Assembly: GCA_030065275.1 (NCBI GenBank) | Contig: JASJCV010000007.1 | Location: 1 to 46,415 of the forward strand | Reading direction: 5' to 3' | DNA length: 46,415 bases | Source of the DNA: Desulfobacterales bacterium | GTDB taxonomy: Bacteria; Desulfobacterota; Desulfobacteria; Desulfobacterales; UBA5852 | Part shown: positions 17,213 to 44,178 of the stretch, piece after piece | Position numbering within the stretch: position 1 is the first letter of the stretch | Layout of the letters: each line of letters begins with the position of its first letter | Notes under the pieces: model-generated | Databases searched by the model: none | Told to the model about the DNA's origin: nothing | What the model saw: the letters and a program-made list of their open reading frames with translations, nothing else | Translations under genes and position numbers: made by a program

Positions 17213-17231
17213 AAACGGCCCGCGGCCGTTT
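17213..17231 (-). terminator. Weak terminator-like hairpin overlapping the stop codon of the SMC-like ATPase gene
   Basis: AAACGGCC-CGC-GGCCGTTT forms an 8-bp stem, but only a 3-T tail follows on the minus strand. Confidence 0.2.
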
Positions 17232-20200
17232 ATAGACGGTGAACGCTGAGCATGGGAGCGGCGATGCTCTGGCGGGCCAGATCGACCATGTGTTGGTGAT
17301 GGGTGAAAAAAATGACCTGGGTCCTTGCGGCCAGGGCCGCCAGGATTTTCAGGGTCGCCGCGGACCGCTCGTCGTCGAAGCGCAGGAGGATGTCGTCCAC
17401 CACGAAGGGCAGCGGCTCGCTGATGTCGATGTACTGCTCGATGCCGGCCAGCCTCAAGGCCAGATAGAGTTGGTCGGCGGTGCCGTCGCTCAGCCCCTCC
17501 ACCGCGACTTGATCGCCGTCGGGGGAACGGATGCCCACCAGCACGGGCTGGCCCTTCTCGTCGTATTCCGTGCGCACGCCGTCGAAGGCCCCGCCCGTCA
17601 TGGATGCAAAAAATTCGCTGGCCCTTTGAATCAGCGGGCCCTGATGCTTCCGGCGATACGCTTCGATGGTGCGGGCCAGAACCGTCGTCGCTAACTTGAG
17701 CCGGGCGTATTGTTCGACATCCGCCTCCAGCGTGGCCAGAAGACGTTGGGCGGTCTCGGCCTGCTCGGCGGCCGCGGCGCGGCCGTCCATGCGCTTGAGC
17801 TCGGCGCGCGCGGTGCCGACGGCCTGATGGCGCTCGGCGCGCTCCGCCTCGAGGGCTTCGATCTCCCGGGTCAGCTGCTGCCGTTGCGTTTTGATGCGGT
17901 CGGCATCCACCGTGGCGGCCTGGTCGACAAACGCGGCAACCGTGGCGCCTGCGCTCAGCTCGCGCAACCGGCTTTCAAGGGTGCTCTTTTCCTCGCGGAG
18001 CCGGCGTCGTTGCTGATTCTGGTGCTCGACTTCGGGTAGCGCCTCCGGCTGGTCGCAGCGCGCCTCCCGGCACAGGGCCTGCAGCAATACCGCGGCGTCC
18101 TCCGTGCGTTTGCGGGTCTGGTTCAGATCTTCGACGGCCGTGGTCAACTGTTTTTCAACGCTGCGGCGGGCAGCCTGTGCCTCCCGGGCGGCCGTCAGAC
18201 TGGCATTCAAGCGTTGAGCGGTCTGATCAGGGGGCTCGCCCGCGTTAATGCGGAGCAGGGGCGCCGCCAGCGCATGCACCCGCTGCCGGAAGTCTTCCGC
18301 GTCGCGGTCGATGCCCTGGATGCGTTTTTGGAGGATGTCGGCTTCGCCGCGCTGTGAGCGGGATTCGCGAATGCTTTCGATAACCGCGGAAACCACCCGG
18401 GGGGCGGCATCGTCTGTGAGTCCGACCCGGGAAACCTTCCGGGACCAGACCGCGCGCCAGGTGGTAAACTCCTCCTCCAGCCGGCGCGATTCCTCGCCCC
18501 AGCGCCGCCGCGCCTGCTCGAGGCGCAAGCGTTCCCGGGCAAGCGATTCGTGCTGCATCCGACGTTCGTTTTGCCGCGCCGCGTAACGACCGGCCGCGGC
18601 GACGAGATCCTCCAGCGAAGCGGACCGGGCGACGGATTGGCTGGCGCTCTGCAGGGCCTGGCGGATCATGGTCTTGAGGGCTTCGACGTCGGTCCGGACG
18701 GCGGTGGTGTGGGTGGTCTCGGCTTGAAGGGCATCCCATTGGTCCCGGATGGAAAGGATGGCGGTCAGCCAGGCCCGCATTTCCCGCGGCTCGGCGGGCT
18801 CGATTTGCGCCGGCGCCCAGATTTGCCGCCATTGGTCTTGCAGATCGGAGCGGGCGCTACGGGTGGCTTCCATGCTTTCGGCGATGCGCTGCAGATCCCG
18901 GGTGGACTGCGTCCGACGAGTCTCCAGAAGACTTTTCCGGCTGATTTGCTCGGCTTCACGCCGGAGTCGGTCGACGATCTGATCGGCCCGGCGCATGCTG
19001 GCTTCAAAAGCTTCGGGCAGGGCCGGGGCCTCGGCGATGTCGGCCCGGAAACGCTTTTCTGCCGTCGGGTCCACCGCTAGACCTTCCAGGCGCCGCCGTA
19101 GGAGCTGCCAACCGACATCGCGCCGACGGCGCGCCGCCGTCAGGTCCTCTTCCGTGGGCAGCTCCCCGTGGAGGGACAGTTCATGGCGCTCAATGTCGAT
19201 GCGCGCGAGCGCTTCCTGCTGTTTTTCCCAGTCGGCCTGCTGTTGTGCCTGGATTTGCCTCAGGTCGTCCAGTCGGGCTTCGAAATGGTCGATGCTTTCC
19301 AACGCGGGCAGGGGCAAGGTTTCAAGGGCGTCCAATTCACCGTGCCAGAGGGTCTGGCGCCGGAGGTTTTTCTTTAGCTTCGCTTTCTGGGCGGCCAGGC
19401 TGCGGTCGCTGGCGGCCAGCTGTTTTTCCAGAGGGCCGGCCTCGATCCCCCGCTGAAGGGCGGTCTTCAAGGCTTCGGCATCAGGCGGCGGCGCCAGGGC
19501 ATTTTGCTGCGCCTCGAGGGCCCGATATTCGCTCTCGAGTTCACGGCCGCGCGCGCGTGCGGCCTCCAGCCGGGTTTGCAGGCGCTCGTGTGTTTGCCCC
19601 AGGTCCTGGATCTCGGCGACCCAGGCGGCCGGCAGCTCGAGGTCGGTCTGCGGCCCCGCCGGATCGATGCCCGCGAGAGTGGCGTCCGCCTGCCGGTAGA
19701 GCAGGCGCATGCGGGCTTCCAGGCCGGGCCGGTCCTTCTGGGCCTTGATGTAGCTGCCGAGTTCATGCTGCAGGGCCTCGATGAGGGGGGCTTGATCCAA
19801 AACGTCGTCGCGCACCGCGATGCGGTCCATCTGCTGACGAAGGGAGGCGACCTGCGACTGCAGCCGGCTCAAATCGTTGCCGGCCGTTTCGAGGTGGTAT
19901 TCGGTTTCGCGACGCTGGGCACTGAAATCCTCCGGCAGTTCCGGGAGGCCGGCATATCGGCGCAGACCATCATCGATCTCCCGGCGGCGGGCCATCAGTG
20001 GCAGCGCCGTCTCGATACGCTCCAGACCGCCCTGCTCCTGGCGTTTGGCGACCAGCATGTCATCCAGGGCCTCGAGACGCTGGCGGGCCTCGCTGAGGGC
20101 CGCATGGTGGGCCTGCCATGTCCGGGCCTGCAACCGCGCGGCCTTCTCGCTCTGGCGAGTCTGCCTGATAAGCGCCAGCGTCTGGTTGATGCGGGGTTTC

Positions 20201-20736
20201 TTGCCCGTGGATTTGAACAGGGCCTCGCATTGACCGGCCAGTTCCCGCTGAAGGGTCTGGAGCCGGTTCAGCCCGGCGCCGGCGGCGAACAAGGCCTGGC
20301 CGACACGGCCGCCCCCGGCGACGATGTCTTCACCGCCCCGAACCAGGTCCTCATGACCGATGGCAAACATCTGTTCGAAAAAATCACGGTCGACGCCGCC
20401 CAAAAACGGGTGCAGGGCGCTTTCTTCTAGCACCGTCCGGTCGTCCTTCGCGCGCAGGGTTTTGCCCTGCCCCTTGCGCCGGACCAAAGTGATCTGCCGA
20501 CCGTCGCTGTGGGTCAGGCAGGCACCGATGCGAAGCTTGGGGTGCGGGTGCCGGAAGTTGTCACCGGTGCGAACCGGAATACCGAAAAGCAGGCTACGCA
20601 GGGCCCGCAAGGCCGAGCTCTTGCCGGCCTCGTTGGGGCCGAACACCAGGTGCATCGCCCCGTGCGGCTGCGAAAAATCCAGGGCCGCGTCGGTGAAGGG
20701 GCCATAGGCAATGAGGTGCAATTGCTCGATTTTCAT
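17230..20736 (-). CDS. SbcC/Rad50-like coiled-coil ATPase (YhaN / AAA_27 type), 1168 aa
   Basis: N-terminal Walker A FGPNEAGKSSALRAL, then about 900 aa of A/E/R/L/Q-rich coiled coil. The C-terminus has the ABC signature LSDGTADQLYLALRLA and Walker B PFVVDDILLRFDD. Its ATG overlaps the upstream nuclease stop (ATGA). Confidence 0.8.
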   Translation of the reverse strand: MKIEQLHLIAYGPFTDAALDFSQPHGAMHLVFGPNEAGKSSALRALRSLLFGIPVRTGDNFRHPHPKLRIGACLTHSDGRQITLVRRKGQGKTLRAKDDRTVLEESALHPFLGGVDRDFFEQMFAIGHEDLVRGGEDIVAGGGRVGQALFAAGAGLNRLQTLQRELAGQCEALFKSTGKKPRINQTLALIRQTRQSEKAARLQARTWQAHHAALSEARQRLEALDDMLVAKRQEQGGLERIETALPLMARRREIDDGLRRYAGLPELPEDFSAQRRETEYHLETAGNDLSRLQSQVASLRQQMDRIAVRDDVLDQAPLIEALQHELGSYIKAQKDRPGLEARMRLLYRQADATLAGIDPAGPQTDLELPAAWVAEIQDLGQTHERLQTRLEAARARGRELESEYRALEAQQNALAPPPDAEALKTALQRGIEAGPLEKQLAASDRSLAAQKAKLKKNLRRQTLWHGELDALETLPLPALESIDHFEARLDDLRQIQAQQQADWEKQQEALARIDIERHELSLHGELPTEEDLTAARRRRDVGWQLLRRRLEGLAVDPTAEKRFRADIAEAPALPEAFEASMRRADQIVDRLRREAEQISRKSLLETRRTQSTRDLQRIAESMEATRSARSDLQDQWRQIWAPAQIEPAEPREMRAWLTAILSIRDQWDALQAETTHTTAVRTDVEALKTMIRQALQSASQSVARSASLEDLVAAAGRYAARQNERRMQHESLARERLRLEQARRRWGEESRRLEEEFTTWRAVWSRKVSRVGLTDDAAPRVVSAVIESIRESRSQRGEADILQKRIQGIDRDAEDFRQRVHALAAPLLRINAGEPPDQTAQRLNASLTAAREAQAARRSVEKQLTTAVEDLNQTRKRTEDAAVLLQALCREARCDQPEALPEVEHQNQQRRRLREEKSTLESRLRELSAGATVAAFVDQAATVDADRIKTQRQQLTREIEALEAERAERHQAVGTARAELKRMDGRAAAAEQAETAQRLLATLEADVEQYARLKLATTVLARTIEAYRRKHQGPLIQRASEFFASMTGGAFDGVRTEYDEKGQPVLVGIRSPDGDQVAVEGLSDGTADQLYLALRLAGIEQYIDISEPLPFVVDDILLRFDDERSAATLKILAALAARTQVIFFTHHQHMVDLARQSIAAPMLSVHRL

Positions 20737-21998
20737 GGGCGGGGCCGATCCGTTTTAAGTCCCCGGATCAGAAGGTCCCGGGCCTGGCGGACCAACGCGC
20801 GCCAGCGTTCGGGGTCCTGAGGATCGAGGGCATCGTCGCCCCGGCGGTAGTCGGCGGGCAGTTTGCGCCATAGAGGTGCCAGGATCTCCCCCAGAGCGAT
20901 CAACTCCGTGTCGCTGGCCACCAGTTCGTCGACCAGTCGGTTCATTTCGTGCAAAGGGCCGGGGTCCGCGGCGGTCGTGGAGCTGGCCGGGGGCGGCAGG
21001 GTTTGGATTTTGACCTTTTCAATCCAGACCCGCTCTCCGAATGCGGATACGGCTGCCGAGCGGACGGCCTGTGTCCAATATTCGACATCGCCGTTGATGT
21101 CGGTGTGCACCGCCGTCGGTCCCCTGAAAGTCACCCGAGCAACAACGGGCAGGGGGGGGCTGTCCGCGACCAGGGCCTCCAGCGTCGCCTTGAGACGGTC
21201 GTTTGCGGCCGTTAGCGTCTCGACCCCCTCGAGGTCGACCGTCACCTGCGCCCAGCGCACGACATCGTGTGGGCATCGGGTCAATGCGGTCACCCGGCCG
21301 TCCTCCACCGTTACGAGCACACTGCCCTTCTCCCCGGTTTCCCTGACGCTGCGTCCCTGGATGCAGCCCGGAAAGATCACCGGCGGCGTCTGGGCCACCT
21401 GTTCGAACTGGTGGACATGGCCTAGGGCCCAGTAATCGTAGCTGCGGCTTTCGAGATCGGCCAGGGCGCAGGGGGCGTAGTTTTCGTGTCCTTCGCGCCC
21501 GGTCAGGCTGGTGTGCAGCAAACCGATATTGAACCATCCGGGAACCGGCTCCGGGTAGCGCTGGACCAGATTTTCCACGACGGCCGTTTTTGCGAAGCTC
21601 TGCCCGTGAACGGCCACCTGGAGGCGGTCCAGCGTGCATGTCTGGGGCCGGCGGTGATCCAACACATGGACGTTGTCCGGGTAGGGCAGGGTGCGCGTCA
21701 TGCGGCCGGCGGCGTCGTGGTTGCCCGACACGATGAAGACGCGAATGTTCGCGGCCCCCAGCCGCTGCATCTGAGAGACGAAATAGAGGCCGGTGTTGTA
21801 GTCCTTCCAGTCGCCGTCGAACAGATCGCCGGCGATCAGGACGAAATCCACGGATTCGCCCAGGGCGTGGTCGATCAGGTTTTCGAAGGCCCGGCGGGAG
21901 GCCTGACGCACTTCTTCGACCGGTGCGCCCTCGTAGTGCGCCAGCCGGTGCAGGGGACTGTCCAGATGGATATCGGCCGTGTGAATGAACTTGAACAT
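20733..21998 (-). CDS. SbcD/Mre11-like metallophosphoesterase nuclease (YhaO type)
   Basis: Calcineurin-type motifs FIHTADIHLD, LIAGDLFD, IVSGNHDA, GLLHTS and ALGHVH. I chose the start at MFKFIHTADIH (complement of 21996-21998). The track ORF extends to 22109. Confidence 0.85.
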   Translation of the reverse strand: MFKFIHTADIHLDSPLHRLAHYEGAPVEEVRQASRRAFENLIDHALGESVDFVLIAGDLFDGDWKDYNTGLYFVSQMQRLGAANIRVFIVSGNHDAAGRMTRTLPYPDNVHVLDHRRPQTCTLDRLQVAVHGQSFAKTAVVENLVQRYPEPVPGWFNIGLLHTSLTGREGHENYAPCALADLESRSYDYWALGHVHQFEQVAQTPPVIFPGCIQGRSVRETGEKGSVLVTVEDGRVTALTRCPHDVVRWAQVTVDLEGVETLTAANDRLKATLEALVADSPPLPVVARVTFRGPTAVHTDINGDVEYWTQAVRSAAVSAFGERVWIEKVKIQTLPPPASSTTAADPGPLHEMNRLVDELVASDTELIALGEILAPLWRKLPADYRRGDDALDPQDPERWRALVRQARDLLIRGLKTDRPRP

Positions 21999-22529
21999 GC
22001 TGAAACGGAACCTGGCTATGGGGTCTGCGAATCTTAGGCGTCGGCATCCACGCCCGTTCGTCGCCTTCGGATCTCCCGGCGGGCGTCTGTCGCGGCGGTG
22101 CCAGACCATGTTCCCTGGCCGGCCGCGTCACGCACACCCGCTCCGATCCAGTCTGCGGGGGACATCGGGGCTTGCCGGGGCAAAACCTGGATAGCGAAGC
22201 CGGCCCACGGGGTCAAGCGCTACCTGCCGTAAGAGGGCTGCGGTCCGTCTTCGCCCCTTCTCCGATCGGCGCGGTCGTGCGCGATCGGTCGTTGGACGGC
22301 AGACCCCGCAGCAGCGGATCGAAAACGACGGGAAGCCACGGACGGCCTCTCATACCGGGCGGTCTTGCTTCTTGTCCATGTATGGGTTACGAGTGAGTGC
22401 GCTATCATCAGAGCGCCATCAGTGGACGCCGGTGCGACCATATGTTTTCCGAATGCCTGCAGGGTCACCACTGCCCAGGCCGGGGCGTCGGCCTGAGCGC
22501 ATTCGCCATCCTTTACCGGGAGAAACGTC

Positions 22530-24407
22530 ATGAAATCCAGGCAGTACTGGGCTGACCGCTATGTCGAGATCCGGCAGGCGCCCGAAAAGGCGATCAAACT
22601 GATTCGCTCCGGTCAGCGGGTCTTCATCGGCTCGGCCTGCGGCGAACCCCAGGCGCTGGTGCGGGCCTTGGCCCAGCACGCCCGCACCCTCACCGGGTTG
22701 GAGGTGGTGCGCCTGATGTCGATGGAGACCACGCCCCTGACCATGATCGCCGAGAAGAGTCAGGATCAGAGCCTCAACATCCGTTCCCTTTACCTGGGTT
22801 CGGGGCGGCCGCAGACCATTGCCCGCAACAAGCGCTTTGTCACGCCGATGAACCAATCGGCCATTCCGCGCCTGTTCAAAAGCCGCAAACTGCCGATCCA
22901 TGTGACCCTTGTCCAGGCCTCGCCGCCCGACGACTTCGGTTGGATGAGCCTGGGCGTCTCGGTGGACATCTCGCTCGCGGCCGCCCAGGTCGCCGATCTG
23001 CTCATCGTGCAGGTCAACCCCCGAATGCCGAGGGTGTTGGGGCACAGCTTCATCCACGTCAACCAGGCGGATATCATCGTCGAGCACGAGGAGCCGCTGA
23101 TCACCGTCCCCGAGCCGCCGGACAGCGAGCGGGCCAACCGGATCGGCCGCTTCATGGCCCGGCTGATTGACGACGGCTCCACCCTGCAGATCAGCCCGGG
23201 AACCACCGGGCAGGCCACCGCCCTGGCGCTGTCAGAAAAAAACGATCTGGGGATCCACTCGCAATTCGTCACCGACACGATCATGCATCTTGTTTCCAAG
23301 GGCGTCATCAACAACCAGCGCAAAAGGCTCAACGAGGGCAAACTCGTGGCCAGTACGGCCATCGGCTCGGCCGAACTCTACGAATTTCTGGACGACAATC
23401 CGGGGATCGAATTCTTCCCCTCCGACTACGTCAACAATCCCGCCGTCATTGCCGAGCACCACCACATGGTGTCGCTCAACGTGGCCATGGCCATGGACCT
23501 GACCGGGCAGGTCGCCGCCGATGCACTGCCCTACAACCATTTTTCGGGCATTACCGGCCTGCTGGACTTCATGCGCGGCGCCGCGGCTTCCGAGGACGGC
23601 AAGGCCATCCTCATGATGACGGCCACCAACGGCAGCGGCAAGAAAAGCCGGATCGTGCCCAAAATGGAGGATCATTCGGTGGTCGTGCCCCGGGGCGACG
23701 TCCACTACGTGGTGACCGAGTACGGGGCCGTGAACCTTTTCGGCAAAAGCCTCCAGGAACGGGCCATGGCCATGATCAGCATCGCTCACCCGGATTTTCG
23801 GGACGAGCTTTTCCAGCAGGCCAAGGAGATCGGGTTGCTCACCGCCGAGCGCACCCTGCATGAATCCATGCAGGGGGTCTATCCCGTCGAACTCGAGGAA
23901 ACCATCACGATCGACGGCGAAGACGTCACCATCCGCCCGGCCAAGCCGGTGGACGAGCGGCGCATCCAGGAGCACTACTACAATCTCGACAAGGAAGACG
24001 TGGTCTCGCGCTTTTTCCACGAAAAGAACAGTTTCATGCGCAAGGAAGTGGAGGGGGTCTCACAAATCGACTATGTGAAGGATCTGACCCTCGTGGCCCT
24101 GACGGGCGAGTTCGGCTTCGGCAAGGTCGTCGCCGTCGGGGAATATCTGCTGGACGAGGCCAAGAACATGGCCGAAGTGGCCTTTTCGGTGATCAAGCCT
24201 TACCAGGGCAAAGGCCTCGGCAGTGTGTTCATCCTGAAACTGGCGACCCAGGCACGTGAAAACGGGATCGTCGGTCTCATGGCCTATACCGCCCCCCAGA
24301 ATCAGGGCATGATCCGCCTATTTAAAACCCTGCCCTACAAGATCGAATCCTTCTTCGACGGTGAGATGCTGACGCTGAGCTGCCGTTTCGATAAACCCAA
24401 GGAATGA
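22530..24407 (+). CDS. Fusion protein: acetyl-CoA hydrolase/CoA-transferase family domain plus C-terminal GNAT acetyltransferase
   Basis: The N-terminal ~430 aa carry FIGSACGEPQALVRALA and LDFMRGAAASEDGKAILMMTATNGSGKKSRIVP (4-hydroxybutyrate CoA-transferase/acetyl-CoA hydrolase pattern). The C-terminal ~170 aa form a GNAT domain with the acetyl-CoA loop PYQGKGLGS. Confidence 0.85.
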   Translation: MKSRQYWADRYVEIRQAPEKAIKLIRSGQRVFIGSACGEPQALVRALAQHARTLTGLEVVRLMSMETTPLTMIAEKSQDQSLNIRSLYLGSGRPQTIARNKRFVTPMNQSAIPRLFKSRKLPIHVTLVQASPPDDFGWMSLGVSVDISLAAAQVADLLIVQVNPRMPRVLGHSFIHVNQADIIVEHEEPLITVPEPPDSERANRIGRFMARLIDDGSTLQISPGTTGQATALALSEKNDLGIHSQFVTDTIMHLVSKGVINNQRKRLNEGKLVASTAIGSAELYEFLDDNPGIEFFPSDYVNNPAVIAEHHHMVSLNVAMAMDLTGQVAADALPYNHFSGITGLLDFMRGAAASEDGKAILMMTATNGSGKKSRIVPKMEDHSVVVPRGDVHYVVTEYGAVNLFGKSLQERAMAMISIAHPDFRDELFQQAKEIGLLTAERTLHESMQGVYPVELEETITIDGEDVTIRPAKPVDERRIQEHYYNLDKEDVVSRFFHEKNSFMRKEVEGVSQIDYVKDLTLVALTGEFGFGKVVAVGEYLLDEAKNMAEVAFSVIKPYQGKGLGSVFILKLATQARENGIVGLMAYTAPQNQGMIRLFKTLPYKIESFFDGEMLTLSCRFDKPKE

Positions 24408-35274: not shown

Positions 35275-35302
35275 TCTACAGGTACCAATCGGGAAACACC
35301 AT

Positions 35303-35335
35303 AGAAGCCCTTCCTGCGGGAAGGGCTTTTTTTTT
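35303..35335 (+). terminator. Rho-independent terminator of the acs operon
   Basis: AAGCCCTTCC (35305-35314) pairs perfectly with GGAAGGGCTT (35319-35328), with loop TGCG. A run of 9 T (35327-35335) follows. It lies 30 nt after the acsE stop. Confidence 0.85.
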
Positions 35336-35644
35336 CCCCGTCGGCGCTTTCGCCTGAAAGCGCGCGTTGCACCGGGCCCGCTGTTGTGGCGCCGGTGGGT
35401 ACCGGACGGAAATGGGCGCTGGCTTGCAAATGATACCGGGCTGTGGTAAGCCCAAGGCAATAAAAACTATTGTATTACTTATAAATTTCAATGTGTTGTG
35501 GGATTTGCCCGTTTGCGGCTGCGGATGCCGATCCAGCGGGCGGGAATGCGTCGTGGCGAATCCGGCACGAAGCCGGCATCACCTGGGACACCCGGCGGGC
35601 GCTAGTCTGCCGATGCGTTGCGCGACGCGATCAGGAGGAGGGGC

Positions 35645-38600
35645 ATGATCCGCTCCAAAGCGCTGGAAGTCAATATCGCCGATCATCATGTCGAAGTGGA
35701 GATCGACAGCCGCTTCGAGGTGCTGCAGCGCGTCATGGCGCCCTACTTCGGCTTGCAGGAAGGGCTGACCACTTTTCTGAAAGAGCTTTCGCACCCTTAC
35801 AAGAACTGGCATTTTATCGTCAAGGAAGCGCGGGTCTACTCGCTGGACTATTTTCATCTGCTCAAAACCCACGACGACGGGCCGGACGCCGCCTGGCTGT
35901 TTGCGGACATCTATCTGCGCGCCATCGAATCCACCAACAGCGGGGAGGTGCGCGCCGATGCCGCAGACAATCTGCTTCTGTTCCTGATCAAGATTCTGAA
36001 AGATGCCGGTGAGACGATCGAACGTTTCGTGCCGCCGCTGGATCAGAGCTTTGCCTATCTTCAACGCTGCGAATCCCGTATCTTCGCCCTCTTTCTGAAA
36101 AGCTATTACCAACTCAACCGCCTGGGAGAGGCGGTCCAGACCAGCACCAACGGTGACGCGGCGCACTTCGAGCATTTGAATCACCTGCTGATCCGCTTTT
36201 ATCGGTCGACCTACGACTACTGGCTGGGCGAGGAGGACCCTCAGCAGTGGTTCGAAAAGGAGGCGGGCGATTTCAAGCCGGACGCGCCCCTGGAGGCGAT
36301 TTTTGAAACCATTTCGCATGCCGCCCTGAAGCGGCACGCCCGGCGGCTGGATGAAATCCTCGCGCGCGAAAAACAAGGGGCACCCGATATCCTCGCGGCC
36401 CTGCTCGCTCTGCCCGGCTTCAACCAGATCGTCACCAGCCATCGGGAAATACCCGGAAAGCTGTTGGCCATCGACCCGGACGGCGGCCGCGGCAATCTCT
36501 ACCGCCTGTTGTTTCTCTTCTACCAAATGAACCTTTCGGGACTTTCGATCATTCACGAGGAGGCCCTGCGCGATATCAACCGCACCCTGACCTGGATCAT
36601 CGAGAACGAAAAGCCCTGGAACATCCGCAAGCTGATTGGCAAGACCTTTTCGATTCTGAAAGCGCGGGCATCCGTTTTCCCGACCACCGCCCTGAACTGC
36701 GTGCTCAACATGGGCAAGGGGGTTTACCGCACCCAGGACATCGATTTCATCAATTTTTTCATCGATCGCGTCATCGAACTCGGGTTTCAGGCACCCAATA
36801 TCGGCGGTGTCGGCAACGACTGGCAGATCAAAGTCAACAGCGCCCACCTGCAGAATATCCGCACTTGGCTCGAATTGATCGAGCTGAGCCCCAAACACTC
36901 CACGCGACTGATGTCCTATTTGATTATCCACATCTCCCTGTGCGGTGTCTTTATCAAGGATACGGATCTATTCCCACGGGACATCACCCGTTTTTTAAAC
37001 AGCGGCGTCGAGCCGGTCTACAACATCGCCAAGCAGCTGGCGCGGCTTTTTCCAGTCTACTTCAACGACATCGGCGCCGAGGGACGTCTGCGGGACATTT
37101 CCACCCAACTGGATGAAATCAATCACCGCAAGGACGTCTTGCTGCATTTTCTGCGCAAACAATGCCATGTCGAAAGCAGCAATCGCATCATTAACTTCAT
37201 GGAGTCCGTGCTTCACTTCTGGCAAACCCGCGAGATCGATCCCCTGCTGACCTACCTGCCCCCCAATATTTTCAGCCAGATCGAACCCCAGGGGCAATAT
37301 ATCGACGGCGTACACGCGGTGATGCAACGCCTGCGGGCGGAAGGTCTGGAGCAGTTGGACCAGTTGCTGCACGCCGACGCCGATACGTTCGAGCGAACGC
37401 TGGACACGTTCGCCGACCTGCCATCCGTGGATTGCCAGCGGGTGCTTTTGGCCGTGCGCCTCTACAAGCTCCTGAACCAGAAATACAAGATCGGGTTCAC
37501 CGAACTGGCCGGCTATATCGCCCAGCTCAAGACCGAGGGCTTTCCCGAACTGGACGAACTGGAAGCGATGCTGGAAGAACCCCGGACACATGCCAAGCTG
37601 GAGCGGCTGCTGGGCTTCGAAGAAAAACTCAAGCGCATCGTGCTGGCCTCGGAGGTCTTCGAGATCCGGGAAGATATCTACAAAAAGCGTCATTTCACCA
37701 TCGATATCCCGTCGATGTACGGCAGTTACCACGAGATGAAATTCAACGCCCTGGGGCTGAGTTTTCGGCTCGAGGCCCTCACCAACGTCTTGCTCGAGAA
37801 ACTGATTCATCGCATCGATCTGAATCTGATCACGCGGGCCACGTTCTACCATATCTACGACCTGCTGCTGCTGTTCAACCGGGCGCTGCGGTTGGATGGC
37901 ATTTCTTCCAAGGAGTTCGAGCGTCAGCTGGAGATGCTTTCCCATGCCCTGGAGGCCAGGGGGTTTACATTCACCCAGTACCTCGACATTTTCAAAGGCT
38001 TTGCCCGGGCCGTCAAGAATATCATCAGTGATTACTTCCACAATATTCACGAGGAGAACCTCAATCGCATCATTGCGCGGACGCCGCCCCAGCACCTGCT
38101 GCCCAAATATCAGCCGGCCGAGGACGAACCGCACGACGAGCGCATGCTTCACCGCCTGTCCGAAATCTTCTTCCGTGACCTGATTTCCCTGGCCCTGGGA
38201 TTGCGGCAACTGGATTTGTTTCTGAGCCGGATTCTGAACACGCTCTTCCACCAGTCGGCCCAGATCCCCAAAAGCAGTCTGCACAGCCTGCTGAACTACG
38301 ATCCCCAGCGGGCGATGACCTCGCTCGTGGCCCCCAACCCCAAAGTGGACGGCATCAACTTCCTGGGCAACAAGGGGCTCAACATGATGAAGCTCAAAAG
38401 CTTCGGATTCCCGGTGCCGCCCGGCTTCATCGTGACCACCGAGGTCTTTCGCTGCCGCGAGGTCATCGAATCCTATGCCGCCGCCGAAGAGAACTTTCGC
38501 GACCAGATCGCACAGAACATCGGCATTCTCGAGAAGTACACCGGCAAGCAATACGGCGACCCCCGCAACCCCCTGATGCTCTCCGTGCGCAGCGGCTCCT

Positions 38601-39823
38601 CCATATCCCAGCCCGGCATGATGGACACCTTCCTGGACGTGGGCATGAACGAGGCCATTGCCGAGGGGCTGGGGGCGCGGGCGGACAACGCCTGGTTCGC
38701 CTGGGACAACTACCGGCGTTTTCTGCAGTGCTGGGGCATGTCTTTCGATCTGGAGCGCAACGACTTCGATGCCATCATCAGCGATTTCAAAATACGCCAC
38801 GGGATACCCCTGAAGCGGGGCTTCAGCGGTGAGCAGATGAAACAGGTGGCGCTGGCCTACAAGGAGATGGTGCGCTCGGCCGGCATCGAAGTCCCGGAAG
38901 ATCCCTTCGAGCAGCTGGTGCTGACCATCATGCGGGTCCTGGAATCCTGGGAGTCGGCCAAGGCCAAGACCTACCGCAAGATCATGGGGATCTCGGATGA
39001 CTGGGGTACGGCCGTCACGATCCAGCAGATGGTCTTCGGCAACATCTCCCAGAATTCAGGCTCGGGGGTGATATTTACGCACAATCCCCGCTGGTCGGGC
39101 GATACGCTCAGGCTGTGGGGCGACTTCACGATCGAGAACCAGGGCGAAGACGTGGTTTCGGGCCTGGTGACCACCCTGCCGATATCCGTGATTCAGCAGG
39201 AAACGGAGATGCGGGACACGGATATTACGCTGGAAACGCATTTCCCCGAGGTTTACGCGACCCTGAAGCGCTTCGCCCAGGACATCGTCTATCACCGCGG
39301 GTGGAGCCCCCAGGAGATGGAGTTTACCTTCGAGGGGGCGGCCGCCAGCGATCTCTATCTTCTGCAGAGCCGCAACATGGCCATTCGCGAACGCAAGAAA
39401 TACATGACGTTCGACCACCAGGACCTGATGGAGCGCAAACCCATCGGCCACGGTATCGGCGTCAGCGGCGGGGCCATGAACGGCCGCCTGGTCTTCACCC
39501 TGGATGAGATCGACCGCTGGCGCAGCCGGGAGCCCGACACGGCCCTCATCCTGGCGCGGGCCGACACGGTGCCGGACGATATTCGCGAGATCTACGCCGC
39601 CGACGGTCTGCTCACCGCCCGGGGGGGGTTGACGTCGCATGCCGCCGTGGTGGCCCATCGCCTGGGCCGCACCGGTGTCGTGGGTTGCGGGGAGCTCGTG
39701 TGCAATGAGAAGGAGAAGACCTGCCGGTTCGATGACATCGTGGTTGAATCCGGGGACTTCATCAGCATCGACGGACAAGAGGGGACGGTTTACAGCGGGC
39801 GCGTGAAGGTGAAAGAGGCCTGA
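35645..39823 (+). CDS. Giant PPDK-like dikinase: ~895-aa unrecognised N-terminal region plus PPDK-type ATP-grasp domain plus phospho-histidine swivel domain; no PEP/pyruvate TIM-barrel domain
   Basis: The C-terminal ~500 aa (about 38340-39823) carry these PPDK-type motifs: FLGNKGLNMMKL..GFPVPPGFIVTTEVF, NPLMLSVRSGSSISQPGMMDTFLDVGMN, DDWGTAVTIQQMVFGN, GSGVIFTHNP, NQGEDVVSGLVT and MEFTFE...LYLLQSRN. The catalytic loop is LTARGGLTSHAAVVAHRLG (His codon 39638-39640). The ORF ends 60 aa later. I chose the start at ATG 35645 after AGGAGGAGGGG. The track ORF starts at 35618. Confidence 0.8.
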   Translation: MIRSKALEVNIADHHVEVEIDSRFEVLQRVMAPYFGLQEGLTTFLKELSHPYKNWHFIVKEARVYSLDYFHLLKTHDDGPDAAWLFADIYLRAIESTNSGEVRADAADNLLLFLIKILKDAGETIERFVPPLDQSFAYLQRCESRIFALFLKSYYQLNRLGEAVQTSTNGDAAHFEHLNHLLIRFYRSTYDYWLGEEDPQQWFEKEAGDFKPDAPLEAIFETISHAALKRHARRLDEILAREKQGAPDILAALLALPGFNQIVTSHREIPGKLLAIDPDGGRGNLYRLLFLFYQMNLSGLSIIHEEALRDINRTLTWIIENEKPWNIRKLIGKTFSILKARASVFPTTALNCVLNMGKGVYRTQDIDFINFFIDRVIELGFQAPNIGGVGNDWQIKVNSAHLQNIRTWLELIELSPKHSTRLMSYLIIHISLCGVFIKDTDLFPRDITRFLNSGVEPVYNIAKQLARLFPVYFNDIGAEGRLRDISTQLDEINHRKDVLLHFLRKQCHVESSNRIINFMESVLHFWQTREIDPLLTYLPPNIFSQIEPQGQYIDGVHAVMQRLRAEGLEQLDQLLHADADTFERTLDTFADLPSVDCQRVLLAVRLYKLLNQKYKIGFTELAGYIAQLKTEGFPELDELEAMLEEPRTHAKLERLLGFEEKLKRIVLASEVFEIREDIYKKRHFTIDIPSMYGSYHEMKFNALGLSFRLEALTNVLLEKLIHRIDLNLITRATFYHIYDLLLLFNRALRLDGISSKEFERQLEMLSHALEARGFTFTQYLDIFKGFARAVKNIISDYFHNIHEENLNRIIARTPPQHLLPKYQPAEDEPHDERMLHRLSEIFFRDLISLALGLRQLDLFLSRILNTLFHQSAQIPKSSLHSLLNYDPQRAMTSLVAPNPKVDGINFLGNKGLNMMKLKSFGFPVPPGFIVTTEVFRCREVIESYAAAEENFRDQIAQNIGILEKYTGKQYGDPRNPLMLSVRSGSSISQPGMMDTFLDVGMNEAIAEGLGARADNAWFAWDNYRRFLQCWGMSFDLERNDFDAIISDFKIRHGIPLKRGFSGEQMKQVALAYKEMVRSAGIEVPEDPFEQLVLTIMRVLESWESAKAKTYRKIMGISDDWGTAVTIQQMVFGNISQNSGSGVIFTHNPRWSGDTLRLWGDFTIENQGEDVVSGLVTTLPISVIQQETEMRDTDITLETHFPEVYATLKRFAQDIVYHRGWSPQEMEFTFEGAAASDLYLLQSRNMAIRERKKYMTFDHQDLMERKPIGHGIGVSGGAMNGRLVFTLDEIDRWRSREPDTALILARADTVPDDIREIYAADGLLTARGGLTSHAAVVAHRLGRTGVVGCGELVCNEKEKTCRFDDIVVESGDFISIDGQEGTVYSGRVKVKEA

Positions 39824-39944
39824 CCGCCGTCACAGGCTCCGCAGCGGCGAGAAACGTGCCGCTCAACCGTCGCCGCCGGCTGCGGCGCCATAGATGCAGG
39901 GCCTGCAGTGCGTATCGAACGAATTCAAACAGGGGAGAGCATCC

Positions 39945-41210
39945 ATGCAACATCCGGCAACGCCTGGTGCGGGCCAAACGCTCGGGGTCAATGGGTTCGG
40001 CCGTATCGGCAAGCTTACCGTCTGGCATCACATCGCCCGCAAATACTTTCAGGAAATCGTGGTCAACATCGGCCGCGAGGCCGGGCAGTCCATGGCCGAC
40101 ATTGCCCATTACCTCGAGCGGGACTCATCCTACGGCATGCTACCGCAATATCTTTACGGCCACCGGGCCAAGCCGGTGATCACCGCTGTGGACGAGGCCG
40201 CCAACGCCCTGAACGTCGACGGGGTCACCGTTCGATTTCTCAAGGATCATCGCCGTCCGGCCGAGATCCAATGGCGGGCCAACAACGTCACCCTGGTGGT
40301 CGACACCACCGGGCGCTTCCTCGATCCCACCCTCCCCGGAAATGATCCGGCCGGCGCCCTGCGCGGCCATCTCGACGCCGGGGCCGAAAAGGTCATCGCC
40401 TCGGCGCCCTTCAAGATCAAGGACAAGGGCCAGGCCATGCCGGAGGATGCCGTGACGACCGTTATGGGGATCAACGCCAACGACTACGACCCCCGCCGGC
40501 ACCGGTTGATCTCCAACGCCTCCTGTACGACCACCTGCCTGGCGCACATGGTGAAACCGCTGTTGAACCATTTCGGCCCCAAACGGATCCTTTCGGCCTC
40601 CATGGCCACGGTGCACGCCGCCACCGGCTCCCAGGCCGTGCTGGACCGCCTGCCCAAATCCGGGGTCAAGGATCTGCGCAAGAACCGCAGCATCATGAAC
40701 AACATCATCCTCACCACGACCGGGGCGGCCAATGCCCTGCGGCTGGTCATACCGGAAATGGAGGAGATCGGGTTCATCGCCGAATCCGTGCGTATTCCCA
40801 CGGCTACCGGCTCGCTGATCATTCTGGTGCTCGATCTCCAGGAAGAACTTGAAGGCGACCCCATTCGAAGGGGTGTGATCAATGCCATTTACAGTCAGGC
40901 GGCCGAAATGGACCCCAACGGCTACCTGCATTTCACCGAAAAGCAGAACGTTTCGGGCGATATCGTCGGATTTCCGCGCGCCGCCACCATCATCGAAGGG
41001 CATGAAACCCACACCCGCACGGCCGAGGTCACGCTGGACCTCGGTCGCATTCCCGGCCTGCCGGACGACGTGCGTGCCGGCCTTCAGGACCGCGTCTACC
41101 GGATACCCATCACCCAGGCGGTGATTTACGGTTGGTACGACAACGAAATGGGCAGCTACGTGAACATGCTGGGTGATCGCACGGTCAGCGTGGCCGAGGA
41201 CATGGCCTAG
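39945..41210 (+). CDS. Divergent long-form glyceraldehyde-3-phosphate dehydrogenase-like protein (~421 aa)
   Basis: GVNGFGRIGKL Rossmann start, IAHYLERDSSYG, catalytic SNASCTTTCLAHMVKPL, ATVHAATGSQ and WYDNEMGSY. It is about 85 aa longer than canonical GapA. I chose the start at MQHPATPGAG after GGGGAGAG. The track ORF starts at 39894. Confidence 0.8.
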   Translation: MQHPATPGAGQTLGVNGFGRIGKLTVWHHIARKYFQEIVVNIGREAGQSMADIAHYLERDSSYGMLPQYLYGHRAKPVITAVDEAANALNVDGVTVRFLKDHRRPAEIQWRANNVTLVVDTTGRFLDPTLPGNDPAGALRGHLDAGAEKVIASAPFKIKDKGQAMPEDAVTTVMGINANDYDPRRHRLISNASCTTTCLAHMVKPLLNHFGPKRILSASMATVHAATGSQAVLDRLPKSGVKDLRKNRSIMNNIILTTTGAANALRLVIPEMEEIGFIAESVRIPTATGSLIILVLDLQEELEGDPIRRGVINAIYSQAAEMDPNGYLHFTEKQNVSGDIVGFPRAATIIEGHETHTRTAEVTLDLGRIPGLPDDVRAGLQDRVYRIPITQAVIYGWYDNEMGSYVNMLGDRTVSVAEDMA

Positions 41211-41220
41211 CGGACCCGGA

Positions 41221-42144
41221 TTAGATCGATCCCCCTGCCGGCAGGGCGACCGACAGAACTGCGCATTCGGCATGGCGGATGACCCGGTCGGTGGTCGAGC
41301 CGATGAACATGGTGTCGAGCATGCCGTGTCCCCTCGATCCCAACACGATCAGGTCGATGGCCGCCTGCCGGGCGTATGCCCGCAGTTCGTCATAAGGCCG
41401 CCCCTCGCGCAGCTCTGTCGTCGTCTGGCACCAGTGGCGGGCATCTGCAGGGATCAGGGTGTCGATTTTTTCCTGAATGAAGGTTTTGATGGCGGCCGTC
41501 GAGGAACGCCGGTGTTCAAGCACCGGTTTGAGCAACTCGGTGTAGGTCGGCATTTCAATGACGTGGACGAGGTGCAGTTCGGCTTCGAATTCCTGGGCCA
41601 GGCTGAGGGCGTGCTGCAAGGCCAGCTCGGCGTCGGGGCTGAAATCGCATCCGACCAGGATGCGCTTGAAGTGCCACGCGGCGGAGGTTGACGCCTGGTG
41701 GGCGTCCGGCGGCCCCCCGCGAATAACCAGCAGAGGGCATGCAAGGGTGCGCATCAGTTTTTCGGTGACGGACCCCAGCAGCAGACGCTTCAGTCCCCTG
41801 CGGCCGTGGGTGGCGGCCACCACCAGATGGGCCCCGTCCTCGCGGGCGATGCGGTTGATTTCATCGGCGGGTTGGCCCACGCAGATTCGCGGCTCCCACG
41901 GCACCGCCTGATCGGCCATGGCGGCATCGATGTGTTCGCGGGCGTATTCGAGGTTGCGATTCAAATGCTCTTCCGGCGCCAAATAGGCTTCGCCGTACAT
42001 GGAGGGGGTCGGAAGATCGACGACGTGGCAGACGAGCAATCGCGATTCGAATTCCCGCGCCAGGGCGACGCTGTGTTGGAGGGTCAGGTGAGCGTTGTCG
42101 GAAAGGTCGGTGGCGCAGACGATGGTTTGATACTGAATTCGCAT
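41221..42144 (-). CDS. Tandem-domain universal stress protein
   Basis: Two USP repeats, each ending in a G-x2-G-x9-G(S/T) block (AATHGRRGLKRLLLGSVTEKLM and LGSRGHGMLDTMFIGSTTDRVI). 307 aa. Confidence 0.85.
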   Translation of the reverse strand: MRIQYQTIVCATDLSDNAHLTLQHSVALAREFESRLLVCHVVDLPTPSMYGEAYLAPEEHLNRNLEYAREHIDAAMADQAVPWEPRICVGQPADEINRIAREDGAHLVVAATHGRRGLKRLLLGSVTEKLMRTLACPLLVIRGGPPDAHQASTSAAWHFKRILVGCDFSPDAELALQHALSLAQEFEAELHLVHVIEMPTYTELLKPVLEHRRSSTAAIKTFIQEKIDTLIPADARHWCQTTTELREGRPYDELRAYARQAAIDLIVLGSRGHGMLDTMFIGSTTDRVIRHAECAVLSVALPAGGSI

Positions 42145-42334
42145 CCGGACCTCCTTGGTAAAAGGTGGTTGGATGGTGCCCCGCCCGCCCGCGGGATTTC
42201 ATTGTCAACGCTTGCAGACCGACGTTCAGGCACGCTGCGTATCATCTAAAACATAAGAAGAGACCTGGGGGACTGTCAAATGCGAAATTGAAGGTAGCAG
42301 GCAGGCCGGACAGCCGACAACCCCGCTTAAGCCA

Positions 42335-42363
42335 TTGACACACTTTGTCCCGCAGGGCATTCT
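42335..42363 (+). promoter_or_regulatory. Candidate sigma-70 promoter TTGACA-N17-CATTCT upstream of the CoADR-rhodanese gene
   Basis: Perfect -35 hexamer at 42335-42340 and a weak -10 at 42358-42363, about 120 nt upstream of the ATG. Pattern match only. Confidence 0.3.
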
Positions 42364-42480
42364 GAGCGCTTCTGTGGCCCGGCCGAACTTCGGGGTGCGC
42401 CGGTTACCGTTGTTGAAGGTCATCTCAGCGTTGCATGCAGAAGAATATCTCAAGAGACACGAGTGGAAAGGAAAAAAGTC

Positions 42481-44178
42481 ATGCCAGCGAGTTTGCGTGT
42501 TCTGATTGTCGGTGGTGTCGCCTGCGGTCCCAAGACAGCGGCCCGTCTGAAGCGCATCATGCCGGAAGCCGAAATCACCATGGTCGAAAAAGGGGCAATG
42601 GTATCCTACGGCGCCTGCGGCCTGCCCTATTATGTCGAAGGGACCTTCGCGAATATCAATGCCCTGACCCATACGCCGGCGGGGGTGTCGCGCACGCCGG
42701 ATTTCTTCCGGACCTGGAAAGGCTTTCAAACCCTGACCCGCACCGAGGCCATGGCCATCGATCGTGAAGCCAAACAGGTTCATGTTCGGTGCCTGGATAC
42801 CGTTGAGGAGAAAAAGCTGCCCTACGACAAACTTGTCCTGGCCACCGGTGGTGAGGCTTTTCGGCCCCCGATCCCCGGCATCGATCTGGAGCATGTCTGG
42901 TTCATGAGCCATCCGGACGACGCCGCCAGCCTGGTGGAGGTCGTCGAACAGAAGGGGCTTGAAAAGGCGGTCCTCGTAGGGGCCGGATTCATCGGCCTGG
43001 AAATGGCGGAAGCCCTGGTCAACAAGGGCCTGGATGTCACCATGGTGGAAATGATGGATCAGATCATGCCCGGTGTGATCGATGAAGATATCGCCCGCAT
43101 GTCCCAGATTCATCTGGAAGACAACGATGTCGAGCTCGTATTGGGAGAACGGGTGACGGCGCTCGAGGGCGACGGACAGGTCCGGCGCGTGGTCACCGAT
43201 CGCCAGTCCATCGAAGCCGATCTGGTGGTGATCGGCGTGGGCACCCGGCCCAACGACCGCCTGGCCCGGGAAGCCGGCCTGGACTGCGACGGGGGGGTCA
43301 TCGTCAACGCCAACGGTCAGACCAGCGATCCCGACATCTATGCCGGTGGGGACTGCGTGCGCAATCAATTTGTCCACCGCCTGGTGGACGAGCGCCTCTT
43401 CGTGCCGCTGGGCTCGACCGCCAATAAGCATGGCCGGGTGATCGCCAATCATATCGCCGGGCGGCCGACGCCCTTCAGCGGCATCGGCTGTTCCAGCATC
43501 GTGCGGGCGTTTGATTTCACCATCGGCCGCACCGGTGTCACCGAAACCATGGCCCGCCGTTTGAACATCGACTATGCGGTGACGACTTGGTCGGGTCAGG
43601 ACAAGCCGCATTACATGGAGGGCAGCCGCTTGTTCGCCATAAAAATGCTGGCCTCGCGGCGCGATCGCCAGGTGCTGGGGGTTCAGGTGGCCGGGACGGG
43701 TGACGGGGCCAAGCGGCTGGATGCGGCGGCCTGCGCCATTTATTTCGGGGCCACCCTGGACCAGTTGGCCGACGTCGATTTCGGCTACGCCCCGCCCTAC
43801 AGCCCGCCCATCGATCCGCTGGCGGTCTGCGCCCATGTCTTGACCAACAAACTCGATGGGCTGGCCGACGGTATCGGGCCGCTGCAGGCCAAGGCGCAGA
43901 TGGACGCCGGGGGCTGTCTGCTGCTGGATGTGCGTCTTGAGGACGAGGCCAAAATGGAGTGGATTCCCCATACCGACAGGGTTCACATCCCCCTGGGCCA
44001 ATTGCGTGAGCGCTTCAACGAATTGCCGCGCGACACGCCCATCCTGACGTACTGCAAGGTCAGCATGCGTGGTTACGAGGCCCAGCGGATATTGAACGCC
44101 GAGGGGTTTGACAACGTGCGCTTCATCGAGGGCGGGGTTGCCGCCTGGCCGTTCGAAACCGACATGCCCGGGCTGTGA
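42481..44178 (+). CDS. CoA-disulfide reductase / NADH-dependent persulfide reductase-type flavoprotein fused to a C-terminal rhodanese domain
   Basis: VLIVGGVACGPKTAARL (FAD GxGxxG), single redox Cys context VSYGACGLPYY, second Rossmann VLVGAGFIGLEMAE, and IYAGGDC. The C-terminal rhodanese domain has the active-site loop TYCKVSMRG. I chose the start at MPASLRV. The track ORF starts at 42463. Confidence 0.85.
   Translation: MPASLRVLIVGGVACGPKTAARLKRIMPEAEITMVEKGAMVSYGACGLPYYVEGTFANINALTHTPAGVSRTPDFFRTWKGFQTLTRTEAMAIDREAKQVHVRCLDTVEEKKLPYDKLVLATGGEAFRPPIPGIDLEHVWFMSHPDDAASLVEVVEQKGLEKAVLVGAGFIGLEMAEALVNKGLDVTMVEMMDQIMPGVIDEDIARMSQIHLEDNDVELVLGERVTALEGDGQVRRVVTDRQSIEADLVVIGVGTRPNDRLAREAGLDCDGGVIVNANGQTSDPDIYAGGDCVRNQFVHRLVDERLFVPLGSTANKHGRVIANHIAGRPTPFSGIGCSSIVRAFDFTIGRTGVTETMARRLNIDYAVTTWSGQDKPHYMEGSRLFAIKMLASRRDRQVLGVQVAGTGDGAKRLDAAACAIYFGATLDQLADVDFGYAPPYSPPIDPLAVCAHVLTNKLDGLADGIGPLQAKAQMDAGGCLLLDVRLEDEAKMEWIPHTDRVHIPLGQLRERFNELPRDTPILTYCKVSMRGYEAQRILNAEGFDNVRFIEGGVAAWPFETDMPGL

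Follow-up and report, generated by a model that had tools for sequence, protein, structure and literature searches.

Two co-oriented genes form the subject of this account, and both lie on the forward strand of contig JASJCV010000007.1 (assembly GCA_030065275.1, a Desulfobacterales bacterium of the GTDB group UBA5852), of which positions 1 to 46,415, all 46,415 nucleotides, were analysed and are called the window here. The first gene (35645..39823, + strand) encodes a protein of 1392 amino acids plus stop, with the nucleotide-binding and phospho-histidine domains of a pyruvate phosphate dikinase (PPDK) in its C-terminal part, and the second (39945..41210, + strand) encodes a paralogue of glyceraldehyde-3-phosphate dehydrogenase (GAPDH) that is unusually long at 421 amino acids. 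Together they are rated as a new dikinase family, in which an acceptor domain of novel fold is accompanied by a dedicated GAPDH paralogue. Translation of the dikinase starts at ATG 35645, a start whose equivalent (M-x-S-K-A-L-E-V-N) is shared by homologues and which has a ribosome-binding site, AGGAGGAGG (35633..35641, + strand), ending 3 nt 5' of it; the in-frame TTG further upstream at 35618 is an unlikely start.

The dikinase module and the helical domain in front of it

The C-terminal third of the dikinase was originally predicted to hold an ATP-grasp domain and a swivelling phospho-histidine domain, and profile searches and alignment bear this out. The PPDK-type ATP-grasp nucleotide-binding domain, delimited with Pfam, NCBIfam and a PDB alignment, spans residues 896-1260 (38330..39424, + strand) and the swivel domain residues 1261-1392 (39425..39823, + strand). 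Within these PPDK_N (PF01326) is matched by residues 948-1252 (E 3.5e-30) and PEP-utilizers (PF00391) by residues 1302-1380 (E 2.2e-15), and among PDB sequences the C. symbiosum PPDK (1KBL; EC 2.7.9.1) aligns through its residues 16-514 with the whole of residues 905-1392 (E 5e-92). Equivalents of the PPDK residues K22 (in GNKG) and R92 (in SVRSG) are found in the ATP-grasp domain, those of the E, Q and R of the E-F-T-F-E...L-L-Q-S-R stretch are kept, and the swivel loop shared with PPDK (G-G-x-T-S-H), here G-G-L-T-S-H with His1332, is invariant in 51 family members. The T-S-H of this loop is residues 1330-1332, the codon of His1332 being 39638-39640, and just 60 residues separate the histidine from the C-terminus, as had been claimed. 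By homology it is shown, or close to shown, that this module has all that PPDK needs for the nucleotide partial reaction and for carrying a phosphoryl group on a mobile histidine.

What PPDK has next is missing. The C-terminus of the dikinase corresponds to PPDK position 514, in the linker that precedes the phosphoenolpyruvate (PEP)/pyruvate TIM barrel, and the absence of that barrel, also part of the original prediction, is evident in that Pfam finds no PF02896 in the 1392 residues, no GTNDL motif occurs in them and the sole CGE, at 1348, lies inside the swivel domain. The PPDK equivalog model TIGR01828 scores the protein at 395 bits, below its cutoff of 843, while the PEP synthase models of NCBIfam reach about 80 bits (83 bits), a comparison that favours chemistry with phosphate and pyrophosphate (Pi/PPi). 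Weak NCBIfam matches to RPH, PigC and RedH fall on the dikinase modules that these proteins share. With an ATP-grasp and a mobile His domain in a single polypeptide the protein belongs to the group of swivel-His ATP-grasp phosphotransferases, whose members differ in their acceptor domains, and it lacks two features by which PPDK is defined, the TIM barrel and a score above the equivalog cutoff. The PPDK annotation carried by databases is thus wrong in the canonical sense and should not be applied to it.

In place of the barrel, and at the other end of the protein, stands an all-helical region of ~895 residues. Its residues 1-379 (35645..36781, + strand) form a less conserved part, modelled entirely as helices and with few invariant columns, and residues 380-895 (36782..38329, + strand) form a conserved core that holds nearly all of the invariant polar residues. 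AlphaFold2 models are confident both for residues 1-900 (pLDDT 88, pTM 0.80) and for the 526 residues 375-900 of the core (pLDDT 91.4, pTM 0.89), and both are helical throughout apart from a single beta-hairpin at residues 675-696 (37667..37732, + strand), which carries K-R-H and I-P-S-M-Y-G motifs and the tip of which (684-687) is the only segment modelled at low confidence. The claim that the region would be helix-rich is in keeping with these models.

No relative of this region was detected in the libraries searched. Residues 1-895 have no match in Pfam or NCBIfam, a lax Pfam scan (E <= 1) of 14 family members left their N-terminal regions without a match, and a profile of the region found nothing among PDB sequences; the absence of a recognisable family motif, as first reported, therefore holds across these searches, and with PADLOC empty as well the idea that a known family accounts for residues 1-895 was dropped. 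Foldseek was run against 350,542 PDB chains with the 900-residue model and, to drop the solenoid-like N-terminal part, with the 526-residue core. The whole domain returned just generic solenoids (karyopherins, Ctr9) at TM 0.10-0.19, the core gave no PDB match better than E 0.05, and across both runs only generic helical repeats and designed proteins came up (TM 0.1-0.2). As far as these libraries show, then, the modelled domain would be without known fold. A PEP/pyruvate TIM barrel in permuted form, proposed as something to be looked for, was considered and rejected: PF02896 and GTNDL are absent, and models made of helices and one hairpin have almost no beta structure from which a barrel could be built.

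Conservation within the region is pronounced and of a particular kind. In an alignment of 51 sequences 21 N-terminal columns are invariant, mostly charged: H401, D439, P470, E479, G480, R483, D490, D497, R504, K505 and H508 in the first half, and K613, Y614, L662, K681, H683, S690, G693, G752, R844 and D857 in the second. D441, R495, R682, Y692 and R708 are kept in at least 90% of the 51 and are invariant in a 14-sequence alignment. Conserved motifs are D-T-D-L-F, I-G-A-E-G-x-L-R, H-F-L-R-K-Q-x-H-V-E and K-R-H-x(4)-I-P-S-M-Y-G, and the invariant residues hold down to 25-30% identity, including in a clade without an adjacent GAPDH. With a confidently predicted fold and invariant charged residues the new domain has the character of a catalytic unit and not of a linker. 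Because the invariant Arg, Lys, Asp, Glu and His concentrate in the conserved core, it is there that we infer the acceptor-binding or phosphotransfer site to lie.

The long GAPDH paralogue and the neighbourhoods of the pair

The second gene begins with ATG 39945, 121 nt past the dikinase stop, and its product is recognised by Gp_dh_N and Gp_dh_C, with the catalytic Cys194 in S-C-T-T. A longer reading frame of 438 codons from 39894 was considered and is unsupported by the homologues, which have 412-432 amino acids. The type I GAPDH model TIGR01534 scores the protein at 320 bits, under its cutoff of 367.2, and relatives are named by NCBI only as 'GAPDH NAD-binding domain-containing protein'; it is a GAPDH-family enzyme yet not a standard type I GAPDH. 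When long GAPDHs of distant lineages, seven in number, are aligned with a canonical gap product, that of a Bacteroidales locus (L089), the ~85 extra residues resolve into five insertions at fixed positions conserved in the family: after D-S-x-Y-G, in D-P-T-x-x-x-x-D-P-x-G, in F-K-I-K-D-x-G-x-x-M-P, before K-D-L-R, and about 30 residues ahead of W-Y-D-N-E. The catalytic and phosphate sites of canonical GAPDH are made by the catalytic Cys149 and His176, by T-T-G-A-A and by the Arg of V-R-I-P-T. All seven long paralogues keep S-C-T-T and T-V-H-A, and T-T-G-A-A and the Arg are also retained. The spacing of the two genes, the intact catalytic contexts and the extra length are thus all as first described.

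The cofactor site is altered. Strand B of canonical GAPDH ends in I-N-D, the Asp32 of which binds the NAD ribose, and this is what the L089 canonical enzyme has, whereas every long paralogue has N-[IVL]-G-R there (N-I-G-R in the window protein). NADP(H)-binding enzymes typically lack the acidic residue and have an Arg next to its position, and since Asp32 is replaced and an Arg follows, the long GAPDH probably uses NADP(H). As judged from these motifs it would fit a phosphorylating enzyme of NADP(H) type.

The pairing of the two genes is nearly constant. It was counted by tblastn of the window proteins against all fetched loci. After redundancy was removed, 64 Desulfobacterales loci extend more than 1.5 kb past the dikinase, and in 63 of them the gene that follows, in the same orientation, is the long GAPDH, the exception (L073, 14227-17674) having downstream open reading frames that look unrelated. 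The pairing is also kept in five distant lineages (L088, L091, L097, the Bacteroidales loci L089 and L094, and L098), in which the N-terminal region of the dikinase is 25-39% identical. The long GAPDH is the better conserved of the two there, at 50-60% identity against 26-39% for the new domain. In L088 the dikinase stop overlaps the GAPDH start. In the Bacteroidales loci (L089, 3078-9456; L094, 7991-14369) the genes follow one another as canonical gap (337 aa), dikinase and long GAPDH (416 aa), the first two genes overlapping by 4 nt, and in L098 (5449-13564) the same order recurs with products of 334 aa for the canonical gap and 429 aa for the long GAPDH, and with pgk-tpiA-secG adjoining the module in divergent orientation. 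A canonical gap therefore stands directly upstream of the dikinase in two independent lineages. After the long GAPDH the Bacteroidales loci have genes for an HpcH/HpaI aldolase, an SDR and a member of the inositol-monophosphatase family.

Clustering of the flanking open reading frames of about 85 loci gave no third universal partner gene; the clusters obtained reflect lineage synteny (acs genes, DUF3786, KsgA, M16 peptidase). A reading of the pair as part of a defence system was tried and rejected, there being no PADLOC match and the neighbourhoods consisting of housekeeping genes. Because the recurrent partners outside the Desulfobacterales are the canonical gap and, in one lineage, pgk-tpiA, gene context supports a role at the level of triose phosphates that is not specific to acetyl-CoA assimilation. 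The near-constant partnership with the long GAPDH points towards a phosphorylation step of lower glycolysis or gluconeogenesis not described so far.

The family itself is large. A word-indexed search gave more than 1300 relatives, nearly all of 1391-1398 aa and with the same two Pfam domains, and when 1.84 billion cluster representatives were searched exhaustively with HMMER, 592 clusters at 50% identity were recovered (E <= 1e-3), among them full-length proteins of 1335-1540 aa with identities as low as about 25-30%. With each GTDB species represented by one genome, a scan found a relative in at least 583 species; the best 80 of these are almost all metagenome-assembled genomes of Desulfobacterales, plus Desulfatitalea alkaliphila M08but, and a distant cluster originates from Bacteroidales. 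The architecture is fixed across the family. One subclade carries an additional N-terminal hemerythrin domain (PF01814), giving proteins of 1455-1540 aa (P0285, P0157, P0150), and in the one such locus looked at (L093, 8001-12623) the dikinase is flanked by a ferritin gene upstream and an SH3-domain gene downstream and by no GAPDH paralogue; the fusion suggests sensing of O2, iron or redox state in that branch. No description of the dikinase family or of its pairing with GAPDH was found in the full-text literature, a coverage that leaves out most subscription journals.

In the window the pair is preceded by genes of the CO dehydrogenase/acetyl-CoA synthase (CODH/ACS) pathway, namely those for RACo, the CFeSP subunits, CODH, ACS and AcsE, and the original prediction called for conservation of the neighbourhood as a whole and placed the pair where acetyl-CoA made by ACS would feed carbon assimilation. 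The part of this that concerns the GAPDH stands, as the counts above show. The part that concerns the acs operon does not: of the 68 Desulfobacterales loci that reach far enough upstream, 30 have AcsE within 3.5 kb, it lies upstream in no distant lineage, other dikinase loci have unrelated upstream genes, and an intrinsic terminator after acsE (35303..35340, + strand; a GC-rich hairpin of 12 bp with a T-run behind it) parts the CODH/ACS operon from the dikinase-GAPDH pair. A functional tie to CODH/ACS is accordingly not general, and the adjacency is lineage synteny only.

These counts bear on whether the protein might, despite its missing barrel, still be a pyruvate/PEP dikinase, the new domain being a non-homologous replacement of the TIM barrel and the GAPDH lying nearby since both enzymes are gluconeogenic. 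Its C-terminal half is indeed nearest to genuine PPDK, databases carry the PPDK label and in the window the gene follows an operon that forms acetyl-CoA. Set against this are a linkage to acs in under half of the loci, a strict coupling to a GAPDH paralogue and not to enolase, PFOR or pyruvate enzymes, which this explanation leaves unaccounted for, the TIGR01828 score at less than half of its cutoff, and a domain whose single beta-hairpin affords no barrel in any permutation, PF02896 being absent, and we regard it as very improbable.

The remaining features of the window concern the spacer and flanks. Between the terminator and the dikinase there is an AT-rich stretch (35460..35510, + strand; 27.5% GC in a window of 62% GC), so that the AT-rich upstream region said to follow the acs terminator is where it was expected, and this stretch may be the promoter region of the pair; a scan of the + strand with the sigma-70 consensus gave no match. 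The leader 5' of the dikinase (35340-35650) folds modestly better than shuffled sequences (z = -2.1), and Rfam gave just sub-threshold matches, all on the terminator hairpin, and no riboswitch or known leader. The hairpin is the only portion of the spacer conserved in the relative L010. In 23 related loci a DUF3786 gene lies between acsE and the dikinase (for example L001, 9241-9858, and L010, 7486-8103), and neither the gene nor a remnant of it is present in the 370-nt spacer of the window (35275-35644). The acs region of the window opens at 22530-24407 with a gene for a fusion of acetyl-CoA hydrolase/transferase and GNAT (625 aa), found also in L029 and L083, and in L007 (7792-9669), where acs genes are absent, such a fusion gene immediately precedes the dikinase. 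Downstream, at 41221-44178, are a convergent gene for a tandem-Usp protein, which ends 10 nt after the GAPDH stop, and one for a flavoprotein like CoA-disulfide reductase with a C-terminal rhodanese domain; the two are kept there solely in the closest relatives (L001, L010, L011, L012, L081). Further upstream, between a zinc-type alcohol dehydrogenase gene and the acs region, the overlapping genes of an SbcC-like AAA_27/SMC ATPase (1168 aa) and a calcineurin-like phosphoesterase (458 aa) occupy 17230-22109 on the - strand. In L004 (6248-17033), representative of a widespread marine Desulfobacterales lineage (P0087, on 59 collection blocks), genes for an H+-translocating pyrophosphatase and DsrC precede the pair and a CdhD-like gene and a ferredoxin gene follow it, the pyrophosphatase being a neighbour worth noting should the dikinase produce or consume PPi.

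Candidate acceptors of the phosphoryl group

Phosphotransfer to an acceptor bound by the N-terminal region, by way of an acyl phosphate or triose phosphate or onto a protein, had been put forward from the sequence and is kept here as a prediction. The reading we tentatively put first, at clearly under even chances, is that of a PPDK-type dikinase which phosphorylates an acid at the triose level, likeliest 3-phosphoglycerate to give 1,3-bisphosphoglycerate, and which works with the long GAPDH. The two proteins would form a self-contained metabolic module. As homology with PPDK closely indicates, ATP, probably together with Pi, would pyrophosphorylate and then phosphorylate His1332, with release of AMP and probably of PPi. 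The phospho-His domain would then swing to a pocket in the conserved helical core (residues about 380-860), the lining of which would consist of about nine Arg/Lys, five Asp/Glu and three His, all invariant. The flexible beta-hairpin with its K-R-H would cover this pocket and could serve as a lid. There the phosphoryl group would pass to a small polyanionic acceptor, which gene linkage would place at the triose-phosphate level, the favoured case being the carboxylate of 3-phosphoglycerate. Succinyl-CoA synthetase and ATP-citrate lyase provide precedents for the transfer of a phosphoryl group from histidine to a carboxylate. The long GAPDH would interconvert the resulting 1,3-bisphosphoglycerate and glyceraldehyde-3-phosphate, as predicted with NADP(H), and the pair would then be a kinase and acyl-phosphate-reductase couple parallel to phosphoglycerate kinase (PGK) and GAPDH. 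Such couples are common (ProB/ProA, ArgB/ArgC, LysC/Asd, PGK-GAPDH).

The expected stoichiometry, ATP + Pi <-> AMP + PPi, would if PPDK-like put the reaction near equilibrium, lending extra driving force in the gluconeogenic direction and allowing ATP to be regained from AMP and PPi in the glycolytic direction; sulfate reducers and PPi-dependent anaerobes yield AMP and PPi in quantity. Stated at its most specific, the proposal is of a '3-phosphoglycerate, phosphate dikinase' of new fold which, with a dedicated NADP(H)-dependent GAPDH and possibly in complex with it, would provide a PPi/AMP-linked bypass of PGK in Desulfobacterota, Bacteroidota and other anaerobes, and in that full form it is a rather doubtful proposition.

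Several points weigh against this assignment. The choice of 3-phosphoglycerate is a guess from gene context, and it is unclear why a domain of ~900 residues should be needed for a three-carbon acid. PGK adjoins the module in L098, which implies that the module adds to the standard pathway and neither replaces it nor fills a gap. The hemerythrin-fused clade and the Desulfobacterales locus L073 are without an adjacent GAPDH, the NADP(H) prediction hangs on a single sequence position, and the best of the weak Foldseek matches are protein-binding solenoids that would suit a protein substrate equally.

The dikinase might then feed or drain the GAPDH paralogue by way of some other acceptor, the paralogue acting on an aldehyde or acyl phosphate other than that of glyceraldehyde-3-phosphate; glycerate, glyceraldehyde, a phospho-sugar acid (4-phosphoerythronate), a nucleotide or CoA-type cofactor and a polymer are candidates. 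The invariant basic residues show no more than that the ligand is polyanionic, and the GAPDH is divergent, with its sub-cutoff TIGR01534 score, five insertions and altered cofactor site, while in Bacteroidales the operon runs on into the HpcH-type aldolase, SDR and IMPase-family phosphatase genes. That the GAPDH catalytic and phosphate-site motifs are conserved, that the genes which recur beside the pair outside the Desulfobacterales are canonical gap, pgk and tpiA and that no further conserved partner gene accompanies the pair all speak for the triose level instead, and a different acceptor seems possible though not probable.

The solenoid-like character of the domain raises the further alternative of a protein-directed dikinase, in which the helical domain docks the long GAPDH or another protein and His1332 phosphorylates and so regulates it, possibly by way of the hairpin His683 in analogy with transfer from Enzyme I to HPr. 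A large all-helical domain whose only, weak, fold matches are protein binders of the karyopherin/HEAT type would be consistent with this, as would the near-constant pairing, with the five family-specific surface insertions of the GAPDH as potential docking elements, and the hemerythrin sensor domain of some members suggests signalling. The density of invariant Arg, Lys, Asp and His in one core, however, resembles more the active site of an enzyme acting on a metabolite, the hemerythrin clade retains the invariant residues where no GAPDH is adjacent, a gene order with canonical gap and pgk-tpi suits a pathway enzyme, and to our knowledge all characterised ATP-grasp dikinases phosphorylate a small molecule or glucan. 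Regulation of a protein partner is on this evidence unlikely.

Relation to known enzymes and meaning for the family

Mechanistic parallels are with the swivel-His enzymes at large, in which a mobile His domain delivers the beta-phosphate of ATP to an acceptor bound by a family-specific domain. Rifampicin phosphotransferase (RPH), glucan water dikinase (GWD), PEP synthase (PEPS) and PigC/RedH share with the present dikinase this modular build of ATP-grasp, mobile His and family-specific acceptor domain. The acceptor domain is unrelated to that of RPH, GWD, PEPS or PigC, having no Pfam, PDB-sequence or fold match, and the domain order of acceptor domain, ATP-grasp and His differs from that in RPH, PPDK and GWD. 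The nearest of them, PPDK, differs in having the TIM barrel, in place of which the family described here has its N-terminal all-helical domain.

The gene pair is like PGK-GAPDH, ProB-ProA, ArgB-ArgC and LysC-Asd in that an enzyme donating a phosphoryl group stands next to, and in the same orientation as, an NAD(P)-linked dehydrogenase of GAPDH/Asd type that depends on a Cys. The likeness to ProB-ProA and the others is in logic only, as the donor would here be a His-swivel dikinase splitting ATP to AMP and not an ADP-forming kinase. The presence of a second GAPDH paralogue, lacking Asp32, alongside the canonical one recalls B. subtilis, in which GapB is the NADP-dependent gluconeogenic enzyme and GapA the NAD-dependent one, although the long GAPDH is marked off by its ~85 extra residues in five conserved insertions, its score below the type I cutoff and its obligate linkage to the dikinase.

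Overall the feature is real, widespread and uncharacterised, and its function can be put as a well-constrained hypothesis. Few dikinases of the swivel-His type are known to us, and each so far has defined a new reaction, those set by such enzymes being PEP synthesis, starch phosphorylation, rifampicin inactivation and prodigiosin condensation. The present family is large and deeply conserved, occurring in hundreds of species of at least Desulfobacterota and Bacteroidota, and whichever acceptor it uses it is a clearly delimited object for biochemical and structural work. Should the acceptor prove to be an intermediate of glycolysis, lower glycolysis and gluconeogenesis in abundant anaerobes of sediment and gut would gain an enzyme and an energy stoichiometry that are both new, and a widespread mis-annotation in metabolic reconstructions would be corrected at the same time.

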